Shown here: one piece after another, positions 46,622-55,398 of the stretch
How positions within the stretch are numbered: the stretch's first letter is position 1
Layout: each line of letters begins with the position of its first letter
Source of the DNA: Promethearchaeota archaeon
Lineage (GTDB): Archaea > Asgardarchaeota > Lokiarchaeia > Sigyniarchaeales > SOKP01
Assembly (NCBI GenBank): GCA_016926735.1
Contig: JAFGOA010000187.1
Location: forward strand, 1-64,000
DNA length: 64,000 nucleotides
Reading direction: 5' to 3'
Notes under the pieces: generated by a model
The model's database searches: none
What the model saw: the letters and a program-made list of their open reading frames with translations, nothing else
Told to the model about the DNA's origin: nothing
Translations under genes and position numbers: made by a program

Positions 46622-47152
46622 TTAGTCCAATTCTAATGTATGTTCTTGAATTAATATTTTTATAACATTATTAAATATTTCTTCAATATTGTCTCCAGTC
46701 AAAGAGGATATTTCATAAAATCCATTCAGATTATAGGATTCTTGAATATCATTTCCCCTGTTGGAAGGAACTTCTCTATATTTCTCAAGATCCTTTTTTG
46801 TGCCAATTAATAGAATAGGTATATTATTTGTGTTCTCTTTTACAATATTGATCCATATAGGAAGATGATCATAAGAGTTATTATTTTTAATATCATATAG
46901 TATAAGTGCAACATCTGCTCCTGTACAATATTTTGGAAGAATTGATCTAAAACGCTCTTCCCCTCCAAAATCCCAAATTTGGAATTTAAATAATTTATCA
47001 CCGTATTCTATAAATTTTGAAAATATATCTATACCTATCGTCTGTTTTAGATTATCTCTAAATAACCCAGTAACATAACGATATGTTAAAGTAGTTTTTC
47101 CTACTCCCTTATCTCCTAAAATTATTAATTTAAAAACAAACTCTTGATTCAT
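46622..47152 (-). CDS. Rab-like small GTPase
   Basis: GDKGVGKTT, TIGID, WDFGGEERF, TKKD, SSLTG. Confidence 0.92.
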   Translation of the reverse strand: MNQEFVFKLIILGDKGVGKTTLTYRYVTGLFRDNLKQTIGIDIFSKFIEYGDKLFKFQIWDFGGEERFRSILPKYCTGADVALILYDIKNNNSYDHLPIWINIVKENTNNIPILLIGTKKDLEKYREVPSNRGNDIQESYNLNGFYEISSLTGDNIEEIFNNVIKILIQEHTLELD

Positions 47153-47567: not shown

Positions 47568-49508
47568 TTGCCTACTATGGATAGACGATTCATTGATGAG
47601 GAAGGTAAAGTATTAATGTTAGGAAATGAAGCAATTATAAGGGGATGTTTAGAAGTAGGTGTAAGCTTTGTTTCCCAATATCCTGGAACACCAACAAGTG
47701 ATATAGGTGAGACCTTTCAGAAATTACTGAGAGAACAACCGGAATTACAAAATTATTTAGTACATCATTGGGGTATCAATGAAGCTGTAGCCTCCTCTGA
47801 ATGTGCGGGAGCCGCCTGGACAGGTTGTAAATCATTAAATCCAATGAAACATGTAGGATTAAATGTTGCAAGTGATCCTTTAAGTGTTATTGCTCTTAAT
47901 GGACCCAACCCTGGGGCAATGGTAATATTAGTTGGTTCTGATCCTGGGAGTTTGGGATCTCATCAAGAACAAAATGAACGATTTTATACTTGGATGTTTC
48001 ATTTTCCTTGCTTTGAGCCTCATACACCTCAAGATTGTAAAGATTATATCAAACTAGCTTTCAAATTATCTGAACAATATGATACTGTTTTTGAAATAAG
48101 AACTTCAACAAGAAGTGCCCACTCTAGAGGTTTTGTTAATTTAGAGCCTATAATAAAAGGAAAGAAAAAAGGAGAATTTATAAGAAATATTCCAAAATAT
48201 AATTCTCTCCCTCCTCATGCAATTAATAATCACATAAGACTTTACGAAAGAATTGAAAAGCTAAGAGAAATTATACCAAAATTAGGAGTAAATAAAGTAA
48301 TAGAAGGAAATAATAAAATAGGGATTATAACTAGTGGAATGCCTTATGGATATACTTTGGAAGCATTAGATCAATTAGGATTAAATGATGTACCTATATT
48401 AAAATTAGGACTAATCTATCCATTAAATTATAATGAAATTTCAGATTTTCTTAAAGATTTAGATAAAGTTATAATAATAGAAGAATTAGAACCCTTTTTA
48501 GAAGTAAAAATATCAGAAATTGCACATAAAAAGGCAATTAATGTTGAAATAATCGGTGAAAAATATTTTCCTAAATCAAATGAATTTTCTACGGGATTAG
48601 TTGCATCATGTTTAGCAAAAATATTTAAAAAAGAACCAAGTAATCAAATGATAAAAGCTATTGATTATTTTAATTCATATAAAAACATAATTCCAAGTAG
48701 GTTTCCCTCTTTTTGTGCTGGATGTCCAGAAAGAGCAACGCTCTATACAATTCTTAAAGCAACTAATCAGTTAGAAAATACAGTAGTATGTGGTGATATT
48801 GGATGTTTTGTAATGAGTTTTTTTCCTCCTCAACAATGCAGTGATTTAGTAATTTGTATGTCAGGTGGACTAAGTGCGGCAATCGGTATGTCTACAAAAA
48901 CAGATCAAAAAGTTATTGCCTATATGGGAGACTCAACTTTTTTACACACTGGAATGAGTCCATTAGCTGAAGCGGCAAGTTATGATTCAAATATACTATT
49001 ATTTATCTTTGAAAATAGTTGGACAGCTATGACTGGCCATCAACCAGTACTAGGATTGATTGAAAAAAGAATATCTATTGAAAAAATCTGTAAAGCAATT
49101 GGAGTACAATGGCTCAGAGTTGAAGATTCTTATAACCCAAAAAAATTAATCTCAAGTATAGAGAAAGCATTTGAGACTAAGGGGCTTAAAGTAATTATAG
49201 TAAAAAGAGAATGTGCTCTACAGGCTCATAGATGGAGAATGAAACAAAGAAGAGAATTAAATAATCAAGGCAAAAGAACACAAGAGGTTATGTATCATAT
49301 TACGGGGTGTCAGATGTGTTATGAATGCGCTCGTATATTGAGTTGTCCTGCAATAAGAAAAATTGAAAAAGATGGATATGAAACCATGCAAATTGACGAT
49401 GATAGATGTGTAAAATGTGGTGTCTGTTATGAAGTTTGTCCTAATGGAGCCATTCATAAATCTATTATTAATGCTTTAGATGAAGAAGTTCCCTTTCGAG
49501 AACTCTGA
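47568..49508 (+). CDS. iorA: Indolepyruvate:ferredoxin oxidoreductase subunit alpha
   Basis: LGNEAIIRG, YPGTP, MKHVGLNVA, FCAGCP, GDIGC, GDSTFLH, TAMTGHQ, C-terminal ferredoxin Cys motifs. Confidence 0.95.
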   Translation: MPTMDRRFIDEEGKVLMLGNEAIIRGCLEVGVSFVSQYPGTPTSDIGETFQKLLREQPELQNYLVHHWGINEAVASSECAGAAWTGCKSLNPMKHVGLNVASDPLSVIALNGPNPGAMVILVGSDPGSLGSHQEQNERFYTWMFHFPCFEPHTPQDCKDYIKLAFKLSEQYDTVFEIRTSTRSAHSRGFVNLEPIIKGKKKGEFIRNIPKYNSLPPHAINNHIRLYERIEKLREIIPKLGVNKVIEGNNKIGIITSGMPYGYTLEALDQLGLNDVPILKLGLIYPLNYNEISDFLKDLDKVIIIEELEPFLEVKISEIAHKKAINVEIIGEKYFPKSNEFSTGLVASCLAKIFKKEPSNQMIKAIDYFNSYKNIIPSRFPSFCAGCPERATLYTILKATNQLENTVVCGDIGCFVMSFFPPQQCSDLVICMSGGLSAAIGMSTKTDQKVIAYMGDSTFLHTGMSPLAEAASYDSNILLFIFENSWTAMTGHQPVLGLIEKRISIEKICKAIGVQWLRVEDSYNPKKLISSIEKAFETKGLKVIIVKRECALQAHRWRMKQRRELNNQGKRTQEVMYHITGCQMCYECARILSCPAIRKIEKDGYETMQIDDDRCVKCGVCYEVCPNGAIHKSIINALDEEVPFREL

Positions 49509-49697: not shown

Positions 49698-50612
49698 ATG
49701 GATATACCGAATAAAAAACCTTCAAAAAAAATATGCTATTTCCTTGATACTGATGAAACTGCTTCTCCTTTTGACATCAATATGGCTTATGATGCGGGAT
49801 TTGATGTGGTTGTCCCGTTTAATAATATGACAGCCGATAAAGTCCCAAGACTGATACAAGACGCTATTTTTTCCAGAAAACCAAATGCTTCTACTGCCTT
49901 TTTTATTGGGGGAGAGGATACAAAAGAAGCAGATAAAATTGTTAATAAAGTCTTGGAATCATTTGTTCCTCCTTTTGAATGCCCTGTGATTGTTGATCCA
50001 CGAGGATCACATACTACTGCTTCAGCAATAATTGCTAAAATTATAAAGATAGCTAAAGAACACGGAATTGAAAATTTATCTGGGAAAAAAATGGTAATTT
50101 TAGGAGCAACTGGTCCAGTAGGAAAGATTGGAGCTCTTCTTTCGGCTAATCTTAATTGCAATACAGTCATTACCTCTAGAAGAGAACAATATATAATGAC
50201 ATTAGCGAAAGAACTTAATGAGAACACAAATAATGGTGCGTCTGAAATAATTGGAGCTGTTGGAGCTACAGATGATGATAAATATAATGTTTTAAAAGAT
50301 GCAGATTTAATTTGCTCAGTTGCGAAAGCTGGTATTGAAATGATCTCAAAAGAACTACTAGAAAAATTACCTCCTAAAAAAATAGTCGTAGATATTAATT
50401 TAGTCCCTCCCTATGGTATCTATGGTCTAAAACCTAATTATGATAATGAGGAACTAATATCAGGAATTTTTGGGATAGGTGCTCTAGCAATTGGGAATCT
50501 CAAATCTAAAATTGAAAAGGCTATGTTAATAGAAGCATCTAATACAACAGGGAGAAAAATATTTGATTATAAAAATGCATTTAATTCAGCTAAATTGTTA
50601 CTTAATATTTGA
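49698..50612 (+). CDS. Methylene-H4MPT/H4F dehydrogenase, MtdA/MtdB-like, paralog 1
   Basis: SPFDINMAYDAG, QDAIFSR, FIGG, DPRGSHTTA, LGATGPVG, DINLVPPYGI, GIGALAIGNLK. Confidence 0.88.
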   Translation: MDIPNKKPSKKICYFLDTDETASPFDINMAYDAGFDVVVPFNNMTADKVPRLIQDAIFSRKPNASTAFFIGGEDTKEADKIVNKVLESFVPPFECPVIVDPRGSHTTASAIIAKIIKIAKEHGIENLSGKKMVILGATGPVGKIGALLSANLNCNTVITSRREQYIMTLAKELNENTNNGASEIIGAVGATDDDKYNVLKDADLICSVAKAGIEMISKELLEKLPPKKIVVDINLVPPYGIYGLKPNYDNEELISGIFGIGALAIGNLKSKIEKAMLIEASNTTGRKIFDYKNAFNSAKLLLNI

Positions 50613-50908
50613 TTAATTTCATTTTCTTATATATTTCTTTGCCAGCAATTTTTACTTTGTTGTCTATATATTACTTTTAAGATTAGTTTTTCCGTATGGT
50701 ATTAAATTTAGATACTTCTGTTTTAGGTGGAGATAATTTTTTTAATTGGTGTTTATTTTATAGAATATTTACTTTTTTAAAAAGTATATATTATATTTCA
50801 TAATCACTAAGAATTGTTACATTATACAAATATAATGCTAGATTTTAATATTAATAAGATTGATTTCCAAATAGTATAAGACTAAAAGAGAATATTAGAT
50901 GATCTATT

Positions 50909-50928
50909 ATGATCAAAAGATTAATATA
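50909..50928 (+). promoter_or_regulatory. Conserved promoter-like motif upstream of mtd paralog 2
   Basis: ATGATCAAAAGATTAATATA; a near-identical ATGATCAAAACATTTATATA lies at 52143. Confidence 0.5.
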
Positions 50929-51000
50929 CCCAAACATTATATTATAACTTGTGATAGTTACTTTTTTCTTTTTTTTCTCAAAATGAGGTAGATCATTAGG

Positions 51001-51951
51001 ATGGAACTATTAAAATTAAAATCAAATGAAAAGACTATTAATATGATTAAAAAAGATAAAACAGCTAATATATGCTATTTTTTTGATACTGATGAATATG
51101 CTTCTCCTTTTGATATCAATATGGCTTATGATTCAGGTTATGATATTGTCATTCCTTTCAATCATATGAGTAGTAAAAAAGTTCCTAAGCTGGTTCAAGA
51201 TGCTATTTTTTCCAGACGGAAATATAATTCTTCAATTTTCTTTATCGGGGGAAGTGATACGCAGGAAGCAGATTTAATCGCTAAAAATATTTTTAATTCT
51301 CTGGTACCACCATTTGAATATCCTATTGTCTTAGATCCCCGAGGATCTCATTCTACAGCCTCGGCCATAGCTGCTAAAACTCTTAGTATTTTAGGAAATA
51401 TTAATAACAAAAAGATTGTAATTTTAGGAACGGGTCCAGTTGCTAGAATGGCTGCTTTATTAGGTGCTAAACTTAATGCTAAAATTAATATCGTGGAAAC
51501 ATGGAATAAAGTGGATTTAAAACAATTTAATGAAATTATAAAAAATCTAAAAAAGGAGTGTAAACAAGAAGAGAATAACCGAATTAATGGAAATTGTGCT
51601 TTTTCTGAAGAAGATCGTTTGGTAATAATAAAAGATGCAGATATTATTTGGTCACTGGCGGCACCTGGAATACAGATCCTTTCAGAGGAAATTATGAGTA
51701 ATTTAAACAACAGTCAATTAGTAATTGATGCAAATTTAGTACCTCCCTATGGAATTTATGGATTAAAACCTAAAGATGATAATAAAGAAATATATCCTGG
51801 AATTTTTGGAGTTGGAGCATTAGTAATTGGAAAATTAAAATATAAGATTGAGTCTTTGATATTAAAAAAAGCAATGAATTCTGCAACAAAAACACTTTAT
51901 GATTATAATTATGGATTTGAAATAGCATTGAAATTATTAAATTTAAATTAA
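51001..51951 (+). CDS. MtdA/MtdB-like dehydrogenase, paralog 2
   Basis: Same motifs as paralog 1; ILGTGPVA. Confidence 0.88.
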   Translation: MELLKLKSNEKTINMIKKDKTANICYFFDTDEYASPFDINMAYDSGYDIVIPFNHMSSKKVPKLVQDAIFSRRKYNSSIFFIGGSDTQEADLIAKNIFNSLVPPFEYPIVLDPRGSHSTASAIAAKTLSILGNINNKKIVILGTGPVARMAALLGAKLNAKINIVETWNKVDLKQFNEIIKNLKKECKQEENNRINGNCAFSEEDRLVIIKDADIIWSLAAPGIQILSEEIMSNLNNSQLVIDANLVPPYGIYGLKPKDDNKEIYPGIFGVGALVIGKLKYKIESLILKKAMNSATKTLYDYNYGFEIALKLLNLN

Positions 51952-52142
51952 TTTTTTTTTAACCTTTTTAGTATATTATTTTTTATTATCTAATTATATA
52001 CAAATAATTGTATAATAATCAAAAATGAATTTTGAAATTAACAAATTATTACCTATTATAAATATATCCATGTTTGTTTATCAGCTTGATATGATTGATA
52101 ATAATAATAAAAAGCACATATCAGATCATAAAATATATGATA

Positions 52143-52162
52143 ATGATCAAAACATTTATATA
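52143..52162 (+). promoter_or_regulatory. Conserved promoter-like motif upstream of mtd paralog 3 (BRE/TATA-like)
   Basis: ATGATCAAAACATTTATATA, about 80 nt before the ATG. Confidence 0.5.
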
Positions 52163-52241
52163 TTAAAATCATTTCTACATCTTTTGGGGAATATATTTTA
52201 AAGAATTTAGCCTGTATTTTAAAAAGAGGTGAGCTTATAAA

Positions 52242-53195
52242 ATGGAATTATTGGAAATAAAACCTGATAAAAGATTAATTAAAGTTATAGAAAAAGAAAA
52301 ACAAACTGATATTATATGCTATTTTTTTGATACAGATGAATATGCCTCTCCATTTGACATAAATATGGCTTATGATGCTGGAATAGATAATGTTTTACCT
52401 TATAGTAATGTGAAAGCTAATTATGTTCCAAAATTAATAAATCAACTTATTTTTTCTAGAAAAATATGTTCTAGAACAATCTTTTTTGTTGGAGGAAGCA
52501 AAACAAATGAAGCTGATTTGATTGCTAAAAATATTTATCATTCATTAGTAGCTCCTTTCAATTTTCCTATCATAATTGATCCTAGAGGGTCTCATACAAC
52601 TGCCTCAGCGATTATAGCAACAATGATTAAAGCTATAAAAAATTTAAAGAATAAAAATATTGTAATATTAGGAACCGGTCCTACAGCAAGAATATTAGCA
52701 ATATTAGCAGCCAGATTAAAAGCAAAAATAGTTATGTTCGAAACATTGAAAAACGTTAATCAAAATTATATAAACGATCTCAATTTTGAATTAAGTGAAA
52801 AATTAGCTCAAGATTTTAAAAATCTAACTATTTATTGCAATTCTAACGATATTATTGACCGATTTGACCTAATCAAAAATGCAGATATAATTTGTTCTCT
52901 TGTGGCACCTGGAGTAGAGATTTTACCTGTTCATATAATTAAAAAATTAAAGAGCCCAAAATTAATTATTGATGGAAATATGGTACCTCCTTATGGTGTG
53001 TGGGGATTAAATCCAAATGATAATAATAAAGAAATTTATCCAGGGATTTTTGGTATTGGCGCATTAATCATAGGTAATTTAAAGTATAAAATAGAATCTC
53101 TTATTTTGAAAGAAGCCATGAAATCTAGTATAAAAAGAATTTTTAATTATAATTACGCATTTAATATCGCTTTAAAATTACTTAATTTAAAATAA
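52242..53195 (+). CDS. MtdA/MtdB-like dehydrogenase, paralog 3
   Basis: Same motifs; ILGTGPTA; GAGGTGA RBS. Confidence 0.88.
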   Translation: MELLEIKPDKRLIKVIEKEKQTDIICYFFDTDEYASPFDINMAYDAGIDNVLPYSNVKANYVPKLINQLIFSRKICSRTIFFVGGSKTNEADLIAKNIYHSLVAPFNFPIIIDPRGSHTTASAIIATMIKAIKNLKNKNIVILGTGPTARILAILAARLKAKIVMFETLKNVNQNYINDLNFELSEKLAQDFKNLTIYCNSNDIIDRFDLIKNADIICSLVAPGVEILPVHIIKKLKSPKLIIDGNMVPPYGVWGLNPNDNNKEIYPGIFGIGALIIGNLKYKIESLILKEAMKSSIKRIFNYNYAFNIALKLLNLK

Positions 53196-53312: not shown

Positions 53313-54101
53313 TTATATAAATAATTTTATAATTAAAAAGATTCCAATTCCTATACCATAAATAGGAATAACATATTTCCAGAATTTATTTGGTATAACT
53401 CTTACAAGATATGGAGATATTAAGGCAGCAAAAAACCCTCCTGTGAAAAGTGAAGGTAAAAGAATGAGATCAACAATTATTCCAAAATTTTGAATCAAAT
53501 AGAAACAAAAAATACCAACTATTGAAACAATACTTTCTGAAAAAGAAACAATAGCTGTAGCGCTTTTTTCATAAATACCTGAATGAATTTGTCCTAATGT
53601 AATTATTGGACCATAACCTCCTCCTCCAATTCCTTTATTAAAACCTGCTATTGCTGAAAAACCGATTAATAATTTACGATTTAATTTATTTTGTTGATCT
53701 TTTTTAATTATTAATTTTAGAATTGCAACTCCTCCCATAATAACTACTAAAATAGCTACATATGCTTTAATAAAAATGGTTGGCAAATGAAATGCAAGAT
53801 ATGTAATTATAATTGAAGCAAATATTGCAATACATCCACAAAATGCAAAAATTAATCCGAATTTTGTAGCCTCATTTAATGGTTTGAATGAATAACGAAC
53901 ATTTCCTAATTCATGATCAAAAAATGTATCAATTATTCCTGTTATTGTTTCAGAAATAAGTATTGTTGGTACTACTTGAAGAGGAGAAAATCCATATAAT
54001 AACAATAATGGGGATAATGCAGTTCCAAAACCCATACCTGCCATTGAGTCCATAGATTCAAAAATAAAAGCTAAAATTATAATATCCCAAAATAAATCCA
54101 T
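53313..54101 (-). CDS. TauE/SafE (TSUP) family permease
   Basis: DSMAGMGFGTALSPLLL, GFNKGIGGGGYGP; multi-TM. Confidence 0.88.
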   Translation of the reverse strand: MDLFWDIIILAFIFESMDSMAGMGFGTALSPLLLLYGFSPLQVVPTILISETITGIIDTFFDHELGNVRYSFKPLNEATKFGLIFAFCGCIAIFASIIITYLAFHLPTIFIKAYVAILVVIMGGVAILKLIIKKDQQNKLNRKLLIGFSAIAGFNKGIGGGGYGPIITLGQIHSGIYEKSATAIVSFSESIVSIVGIFCFYLIQNFGIIVDLILLPSLFTGGFFAALISPYLVRVIPNKFWKYVIPIYGIGIGIFLIIKLFI

Positions 54102-54693: not shown

Positions 54694-55398
54694 ATGAGCT
54701 TTAAAGAAACTGATATTATTAATATTGTTGTAGCAGGAACTGCCGGACAGGGAGTTATTTCAGTTAAACGATTAATTGAATTTGCAGCTCAAAAAGCAGG
54801 CGCAGAGCGAATTCTTGGAAGTGAAATCTTTATTTAGTTAGAATAAAGACATTTAATGCATGGACTCGCTCAGAGAGAAGGTGCTATAACAAGTCATACA
54901 CGATATCAAAAGAAATTGTTCAATAATCCTCGTAAAGATTTGCAATCTTCATTAATCTGCTATGGAGATGCGGATATTTATATTTGTCTCGAACCAGTTG
55001 AAGCTTTGAGAAGAGGTATTTTTGCTTCGGAAAAGACAACTTTTGTAATAAATTCAAGAACAATTCCTGGTGTAATGATAACTGCTGGTCTGGAAAAATA
55101 CCCATCATTAGATAAAATTAAAGAAACTTTGATAGGTAATGCTAAAGATGTTTATTTTATAAATGCTACTGAAATATCTTTAGAATATTTCAAACAAAAT
55201 CAGCAAGTAAATATAATAATGTTAGGTTTTGCTATATCAACTAATAAATTACCTTTTATCGAAATAGATCATTATGAAGATGTAATTAAAGAATGGCTAA
55301 AAGATCCTGAAATAAATATTAAAGCATTGCATTTAGGTATCGAAAAAGGTAAAGAAATAATCGAAAAAATGAATTTAAATCCAGACAAGATAGAATAA
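54694..55398 (+). CDS. iorB: Indolepyruvate:ferredoxin oxidoreductase subunit beta, split by a 30-nt intron (exons 54694-54825 and 54856-55398; 224 aa spliced)
   Basis: Exon 1 MSFKETDIINIVVAGTAGQGVISV...ILGSE joins exon 2 MHGLAQREGAITSH...ADIYICLEPVEALR...NIIMLG, restoring the IorB GxxGQG and SExHGxxQRxG motifs. Confidence 0.9.
54826..54855 (+). other. Candidate BHB mRNA intron in iorB
   Basis: Helix AGTG/CATT, bulges AAA and TAA, 8-bp inner stem TCTTTATT/AATAAAGA; carries in-frame TAG and TAA. Confidence 0.85.

Follow-up and report, generated by a model that had tools for sequence, protein, structure and literature searches.

A Putative Bulge-Helix-Bulge Intron Within the Coding Sequence of iorB in an Asgard Archaeon

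Results and Discussion

The iorB Locus and Its Interruption

The window that was analyzed comprises 64,000 nucleotides (nt), i.e., positions 1 to 64,000 of the forward strand of contig JAFGOA010000187.1, which belongs to the genome assembly GCA_016926735.1 of a Promethearchaeota archaeon (Asgardarchaeota; Lokiarchaeia; Sigyniarchaeales). It contains a gene predicted to encode IorB, the beta subunit of indolepyruvate:ferredoxin oxidoreductase, and the reading frame of this gene is interrupted by 30 nt, which most probably represent a bulge-helix-bulge (BHB) intron of the type known from archaeal tRNAs. The features of the locus are summarized in Table 1. The last codons upstream of the interruption, which end at position 54825, are GGA AGT GAA (G-S-E). 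Alignment of the protein with 11 intact orthologs of about 216 amino acids (aa) revealed that the 10 extra codons of iorB sit precisely between the invariant GSE and the invariant MHGLAQREG. An earlier note on this DNA, which had been made from the sequence alone, had described a 30-nt insert with in-frame TAG and TAA codons in iorB, and the insert as well as both stop codons were found at the positions given there. The same note had proposed that a cut after the second nucleotide of each bulge removes exactly these 30 nt. Indeed, the cut sites predicted from the BHB match the insert borders that were set by the protein alignment, and GSE-MHG is restored. In this genome AAT is present at both borders (54825-27 and 54855-57), and because of this recurrence four cut registers, namely the one predicted from the BHB and shifts of it by -1, +1, and +2 nt, yield an identical spliced sequence.

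The POR gamma-type domain (PF01558) was recovered with E = 9.6e-15 over profile positions 2-173 of 173, but only when both exons were read. The top NCBIfam models for the product were IOR_beta models (1e-29, 102-104 bits), obtained with a query that still contained the 10 extra codons; the equivalog cut-offs of 206-238 bits were not reached, and by this test the product is best called IorB-like. A protein search with IorB retrieved 466 relatives, and the best full-length proteins among them have about 216 aa, are 72-79% identical, and are labelled Promethearchaeota, Lokiarchaeota or Hodarchaeota in their sources. The sole 100% match in the database is a truncated protein of 180 aa (P0002), which corresponds to exon 2 alone. 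It had been expected that gene callers would report nothing but such a truncated IorB, and this entry is a case in point.

Table 1. Position of the iorB gene, of the elements of its predicted junction fold, and of further genes treated in the text. Positions without prefix refer to the window; G000 is the genome that contains the window.
Feature	Position	Strand	Remarks
iorB, whole gene	54694-55398	+	Interrupted by 30 nt at 54826-54855
iorB exon 1	54694-54825	+	ATG at 54694; 44 codons, MSFKE...ILGSE; GTAGQG motif present
Putative BHB mini-intron, 30 nt	54826-54855	+	In-frame TAG (54835-37) and TAA (54844-46)
iorB exon 2	54856-55398	+	Starts with ATG CAT GGA (MHG); MHGLAQREG; 180 codons and stop
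Outer exon-exon helix h, 5' strand	54805-54819	+	Partner 54857-54871; 12 of 13 tested pairs formed here
Outer exon-exon helix h, 3' strand	54857-54871	+	Partner 54805-54819
Central helix H, 5' strand (exon, AGUG)	54820-54823	+	4 base pairs with 54850-54853
Central helix H, 3' strand (intron, CAUU)	54850-54853	+	One G.U pair in the helix
5' bulge, AAA	54824-54826	+	Predicted cut after 54825
Inner intron hairpin h'	54827-54849	+	54827-35 with 54841-49, 9 pairs; 5-nt loop 54836-40
3' bulge, UAA	54854-54856	+	Predicted cut after 54855; the exon 2 ATG begins with A54856
iorA, alpha subunit	47568-49508	+	Intact; sole copy in the genome; 5.2 kb upstream of iorB
AMP phosphorylase	C50 ~76346-76377	+	30-nt insert with three stops; cut rule restores DKHST/GGVPGNK; this gene and the aldolase gene were read on loci L062, L063
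Aldolase	C50 ~42800 and ~42170	-	Two inserts: one in frame, AVDHG/YFG; the other corrects a frameshift before GRNIFQ
NAD+ synthase (NadE)	G000:C143:3049-3080 (locus L065)	-	30-nt BHB-shaped insert; KYGD/GGVD restored
aEF-2-family gene	G000:C188:20430-20462 (locus L066, 231-263)		31-nt BHB-shaped insert within the GTP-binding motif GHIDHG-K-TTLSD

Fold of the Junction RNA

The fold of the RNA at the iorB junction is the canonical hBHBh' motif. The central helix and the two bulges agree with the core that had been described before, while the inner stem has nine pairs, one more than had been counted. The view that the outer exon-exon helix is weak had to be abandoned, since 12 pairs are formed over 15 positions, including GAGCGA/UCGCUC. 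When the insertion site was kept as set by the protein alignment, 0.8% of the trials with shuffled 30-nt inserts gave a BHB core in one or another of the four registers, and 0.06% gave a core with an inner stem of at least seven pairs, compared to nine in the real stem.

Rfam was also searched. Only chance-level matches far under the gathering scores were obtained, which do not point to a known RNA family.

Distribution of the Insert Among Relatives

About 65 iorB orthologs were recovered when 151 genomes of the order were searched in six frames. Among the matches, nine had internal stops and 12 began only at residue 43-45. All 21 interrupted loci that were fetched contain the insert exactly between GSE and MHG, with a length of 30 nt in nine and of 31 nt in 12 of them, and 24 further orthologs that were inspected are without it. 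Because interrupted loci were fetched on purpose, 21 of 45 inspected genes is a biased figure, and 21 of about 65, i.e., about one third, is a fairer one. The 21 insert-bearing orthologs represent nine genera of one family and include all four genomes of the genus of the window; none of the six orthologs from the other three families of the order has the insert. The 31-nt inserts shift the reading frame, and still no exon contains a stop. The IorB protein tree is poorly resolved and the intron-bearing genes are scattered in it; well-supported branches force at least three changes, and the resolution is too low for counting gains and losses. Since alignment of the intron sequences is possible across genera, the simplest reading would be one old gain, inheritance together with the gene, and repeated precise losses in many lineages.

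Read straight through, iorB has two in-frame stops, as would be expected from an assembly error or from a recent disabling insertion in a decaying pseudogene. However, 21 genomes share the insert, and it was also seen in three independent JGI metagenome contigs, retrieved with an exact pattern that allowed a gap and covered the spliced as well as the unspliced junction of the genus of the window. All three have the 30-nt gap, and in two the insert is identical in sequence to that of the window. Decay is difficult to reconcile with the exons of the intron-bearing genes, which contain no stop or frameshift. For both exons, the ratio of nonsynonymous to synonymous substitutions (dN/dS) is close to 0.08, i.e., both parts are under strong purifying selection, and synonymous sites are near saturation (pS 0.59 and 0.73 for the exons). 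Furthermore, the partner gene iorA is intact. A dead gene or an artifact is thus hardly conceivable.

Two side observations concern other genomes. A relic of an iorB 3' tail (63 aa, 70% identical, one in-frame stop) is located at positions 371-559 of the minus strand of locus L061 (G131:C7), downstream of an aminoacyl-tRNA-synthetase-like gene, which comes after an intact intron-less iorB. An internal stop that had been suspected in a paralog of genome G096 turned out to be the ordinary stop codon of that gene.

Conservation and Covariation of the Structure

The structure was tested with an alignment (A2) of the 21 insert-bearing junctions. The hBHBh' pairing is kept in 92.1% of the cells, compared to 20-46% after a shift of the 3' partners by 1-3 columns; the fraction of paired cells is 93% for helix h and 91% for h'. 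Compensatory changes on both sides occur in 11 of the 26 pairs, and the observed covariation score was matched by none of 500 shuffles. All three helices contribute. In the inner hairpin h', eight of nine pairs covary among relatives. Column pair 22/52 of the central helix is U-A in 12 distinct sequences, C-G in six, and broken in none; on the exon side it is the third base of a Ser codon (AGU/AGC), with which the intron base (A/G) covaries perfectly. The outer helix has an Ile/Val/Ala codon whose second base changes together with the third base of a Gly codon (U-A 11, C-G 5). The 4-bp helix and the 3-nt bulges are constant in size in all 21 sequences, and the extra nucleotide of the 31-nt inserts is accommodated within the hairpin, outside of the BHB core. 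RNAalifold recovered both the inner and the outer helices without guidance. The comparison of intron presence and absence and of stem covariation across relatives, which the earlier note had recommended, therefore revealed that hBHBh' is kept through compensatory changes. The decay without structural conservation that would mark a pseudogene was also looked for, and the opposite was observed.

The 13 tested positions of the outer helix form on average 12.1 pairs in intron-bearing genes versus 8.0 in intron-less genes (Mann-Whitney p = 3e-8, a value to be read with the fact that relatives are not independent). The exon-exon helix h is retained only in intron-bearing genes, and the intron-less orthologs have lost it.

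The conserved features also bear on two mechanisms that would not involve an intron of the tRNA type. Ribosomes might hop over the 30 nt of an uncut mRNA, as in gene 60 of phage T4, and a hairpin, a stop close to the last sense codon, and, in this genome, the AAT repeat at both borders are features that such a bypass could make use of. However, relatives do not share the border repeat, and matching take-off and landing codons do not exist. What is conserved are the bulges and helices of the BHB, including the distal exon-exon helix, for which bypassing has no need, so that this explanation can be given next to no credence. Alternatively, a miniature inverted-repeat element or a homing-associated element might happen to sit in iorB. 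Such mobile DNA is very unlikely. The insert is unique in the genome, even when six mismatches are allowed, and it occupies the same codon in nine genera with alignable sequences. The inverted repeat and the 3-nt border repeat of the insert in this genome would fit a mobile element, but, again, the border repeat is not shared by the relatives. A LAGLIDADG_3 match was not found on this contig (C4), and there was none in the flanks that were read in two relatives (L015, L004), which contain an aminoacyl-tRNA-synthetase-like gene and a Fe-S protein gene. In any case, a mobile origin would not remove the need for splicing.

Splicing Machinery

The earlier note had attributed splicing to EndA and RtcB, and the first half of this prediction is borne out by the genome. 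Two EndA paralogs exceed the Pfam cut-off of PF01974, one with 203 aa (G000:C33) and one with 202 aa (C100). The motifs were read by eye: the 203-aa protein has the Tyr..His..Lys pattern, and the His is missing in the 202-aa protein. Therefore, one paralog looks catalytic and the other structural, and the pair fits the two-subunit type of the endonuclease. A preprint on the heavily interrupted tRNA genes of Asgard archaea reports two EndA paralogs for 44 of 60 Asgard genomes (bioRxiv 10.64898/2026.10.13.758758), and the two-subunit enzyme is one of two types that are able to cut non-canonical introns (PMC5829648).

The cut rule of EndA exactly reproduces the intron that ARAGORN predicted for the tRNA-Leu(CAG) of this genome. 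For tRNA-Ala(UGC) the length of the intron is the same and its position is offset by 2 nt. The intron calls of ARAGORN were mostly unreliable for this genome, and only tRNA-Leu(CAG) gave a clean comparison. Among the odd calls were introns of 245 nt in a tRNA-Pyl and of 736 nt in a tRNA-Lys. ARAGORN predicted no tRNA within the window.

Further Interrupted Genes of the Genome

It had been suspected that introns of this kind could be widespread and overlooked, and four further genes of the genome do have the same architecture (Table 1). They encode AMP phosphorylase, an aldolase, NAD+ synthase, and a member of the aEF-2 family, and in every one of them a conserved motif is regained when the cut rule is applied. 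The two NadE exons match contiguous positions of the NF010587 profile (4-155, then 156-262), and the exons of the aEF-2-family gene match positions 2-31 and then 33-718 of TIGR00490. The junctions of the AMP phosphorylase and aEF-2 genes fall within a codon. Because the second exon begins inside a codon in both cases, separate translation of the two parts cannot explain these genes. As a side observation, the aEF-2-family gene has a 34%-identical paralog on C138.

Weighing of the Evidence

In summary of the comparative tests that were run, all of them support the proposal of the earlier note that iorB contains a BHB intron that must be removed by the tRNA-splicing machinery for the production of full-length IorB. 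We put the probability that positions 54826-54855 are such an archaeal, EndA-type intron within the coding sequence, and that mRNA splicing is required for full-length IorB, at roughly 0.87.

Four observations weigh against this conclusion. First, single BHB-like folds are common in this genome, which has a GC content of 26%. In two genome scans for BHB geometry combined with open frames on both sides, the mirror-image topology was about as frequent as the real one (390 against 340, and 331 against 312 after filtering). Geometry scans thus cannot count introns in such a genome, real cases are recognizable only via the restored protein motifs, and for this reason the case rests on the comparative data and not on the lone fold. 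Second, RtcB was not found in this assembly, neither with the PF01139 profile nor with tblastn and the RtcB of a relative, and the second half of the prediction about the machinery is not supported for this genome. The assembly consists of 238 contigs and is 99.3% complete by marker genes. The remaining three genomes of the genus all have RtcB, as do 19 of the 21 genomes that were searched, this one included; its absence here may be an assembly gap. Third, the database contains no protein that could be taken for the product of a spliced intron-bearing gene: identities did not exceed 92%, whereas the products of intron-less genomes find matches at 99-100%. Fourth, the first codon of exon 2 is ATG in all 21 interrupted genes, whereas position 45 is a Met in just 15 of 24 intron-less genes and a Gln, Asp, His, or Ser in the other nine; constraints of the BHB, an internal start, or ancestry may be behind this bias.

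The last point leads to the only serious rival, which is a split gene. In this case the 30-31 nt would be a structured spacer, and a peptide of about 47 aa and a protein of 172-180 aa, translated from the ATG, would assemble without any splicing. The bias toward ATG is predicted by a split gene, too, and so is a stop within 0-4 codons after exon 1, which was present in the interrupted sequences that were read. Purifying selection on both parts is expected equally under both explanations. However, a split gene leaves unexplained why every copy has the 4-bp helix and two 3-nt bulges, why bases of exon and intron covary, and why there is a long exon-exon helix. The break would also have to fall inside the invariant GSE-MHG motif. 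A Shine-Dalgarno-like 4-mer precedes the ATG in none of the 21 spacers, a weak argument since only 15% of the long open reading frames of the genome have one. The AMP phosphorylase and aEF-2 inserts have the same architecture and interrupt a codon, and a second start is impossible there. Altogether, a split iorB is improbable.

Proposed Splicing of the iorB mRNA

Splicing of iorB could proceed as follows. In the pre-mRNA, codons of exon 1 (54805-19) would pair with codons of exon 2 (54857-71), and this pairing would bring together the 4-bp helix AGUG/CAUU, the two 3-nt bulges, and the 9-bp hairpin of the intron. The splicing endonuclease, here probably a heteromer in which a catalytic EndA paralog is combined with a structural one, would cut after the second base of each bulge, and an RNA ligase, which is RtcB in relatives, would join ...GGA AGU GAA to AUG CAU GGA, so that GGAAGTGAA is followed directly by ATGCATGGA at the junction. 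The joined mRNA would be translated into an IorB of 224 aa with the invariant GSE-MHG, and the peptide across the spliced junction would be ILGSEMHGLAQR; the 30-nt intron would be released. From the unspliced RNA, only an N-terminal peptide of 47 aa and possibly a piece of 180 aa, initiated at the internal ATG, could be made. The anatomy of the junction, its conservation and covariation, the selection on both exons, and the presence of EndA are shown by the sequences, whereas we infer cleavage, ligation, and the constitutive nature of splicing. The intron is most likely a tolerated element and not a switch, because two thirds of the orthologs do without it and because housekeeping genes of the same genome carry such inserts.

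In the earlier note a regulatory switch had been considered, and the splicing of HAC1 and XBP1 in eukaryotes had been named as a parallel. That non-spliceosomal reaction uses Ire1 together with a tRNA ligase or RtcB and changes the translated product. A role of RtcB is noted in PMC8718801. In contrast to the BHB of iorB, the RNAs recognized by Ire1 have paired stem-loops, and their splicing is regulated by stress, while there is no sign of regulation for iorB and most orthologs are intron-less. The likeness to HAC1/XBP1 would thus be one of mechanism only, not of family, and the idea of a switch is not supported; about two thirds of the orthologs lack the intron. A conditional variant can nevertheless be formulated: cutting by EndA would compete with ribosomes that unwind the helix, this competition would gate the level of full-length IorB, and unspliced mRNA would yield the 180-aa protein. 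The internal ATG is conserved in all 21 intron-bearing genes. We regard conditional splicing as unlikely; if it occurred, the closest relatives of eukaryotes would possess an archaeal equivalent of HAC1/XBP1-type control.

Comparison With Known BHB Introns

The closest precedent is cbf5, which, as proposed here for iorB, has a BHB intron in the coding sequence that is cut by the tRNA-splicing machinery (Watanabe et al., 2002; Yoshinari et al., 2006; PMC2738675). The cbf5 intron of Crenarchaeota is present in some lineages and has been secondarily lost in others (Yokobori et al., 2009; PMC2738675), and it has been linked to a hetero-oligomeric endonuclease (Yoshinari et al., 2006). There are also differences. 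Cbf5 is an RNA-modification enzyme of Crenarchaeota, whereas IorB is a subunit of a metabolic oxidoreductase of Asgard archaea (Promethearchaeota). The splicing of cbf5 has been shown by experiment, while that of iorB is deduced from comparative sequence data. Moreover, unlike cbf5, iorB shares its genome with several other genes that are interrupted. With the BHB introns of archaeal tRNAs and rRNAs (Marck and Grosjean, 2003) the putative iorB intron would share the hBHBh' geometry, the cut positions, and the enzyme. In contrast to these, it resides in an mRNA. The exon parts of its motif consist of codons, and synonymous and conservative codon choices carry the helix.

An mRNA of Haloferax volcanii, HVO_1309, is a substrate of EndA in vivo and in vitro (PMC7714728). 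It resembles iorB, as interpreted here, in being an mRNA that is cut by the archaeal splicing endonuclease; in iorB, a conserved motif of the product is interrupted. The same publication counts one earlier published case of a BHB in an mRNA, namely cbf5. Accordingly, BHB introns inside archaeal coding sequences were found in the searched literature only for cbf5 (PMC2738675), in addition to the Haloferax mRNA that is an EndA substrate (PMC7714728). The preprint on Asgard tRNA introns (bioRxiv 10.64898/2026.10.13.758758) does not mention mRNA, and no publication on an iorB intron was found in the literature searched. The putative iorB intron therefore represents a new gene and a new phylum for a known mechanism.

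The mechanism is thus proposed for a metabolic Asgard gene, in which the intron has been kept over nine genera. Interruptions of the same kind affect four or more additional genes of the genome, one of which encodes a translation factor of the aEF-2 family. Should this be confirmed with RNA data, protein genes that need RNA cutting and rejoining would be a routine feature in relatives of the eukaryotic ancestor. Gene callers would then systematically truncate or split such genes, for which the 180-aa database fragment is an example. And, as half of each splicing signal would reside in codons, these genes would offer a clean system for the study of coding constraints versus constraints of RNA structure.

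Genes in the Vicinity of iorB

Irrespective of the intron, iorA ends only a few bases ahead of iorB in most relatives. The genus of the window has three tandem paralogous Mpt_N genes (49698-53195, plus strand; Mpt_N is the N-terminal domain of methylene-tetrahydromethanopterin dehydrogenase) and a gene for a TauE exporter (53313-54101, minus strand) between the two. In another genome (G062), a cysteine-rich, Fe-S-type gene of 357 aa lies between iorA and an intron-less iorB (L004, 2238-3311, minus strand). At positions 46622-47152 of the minus strand, the window also encodes a small GTPase of the Ras family with 176 aa (PF00071, E = 4.9e-45); eukaryote-like small GTPases are typical of Asgard archaea.

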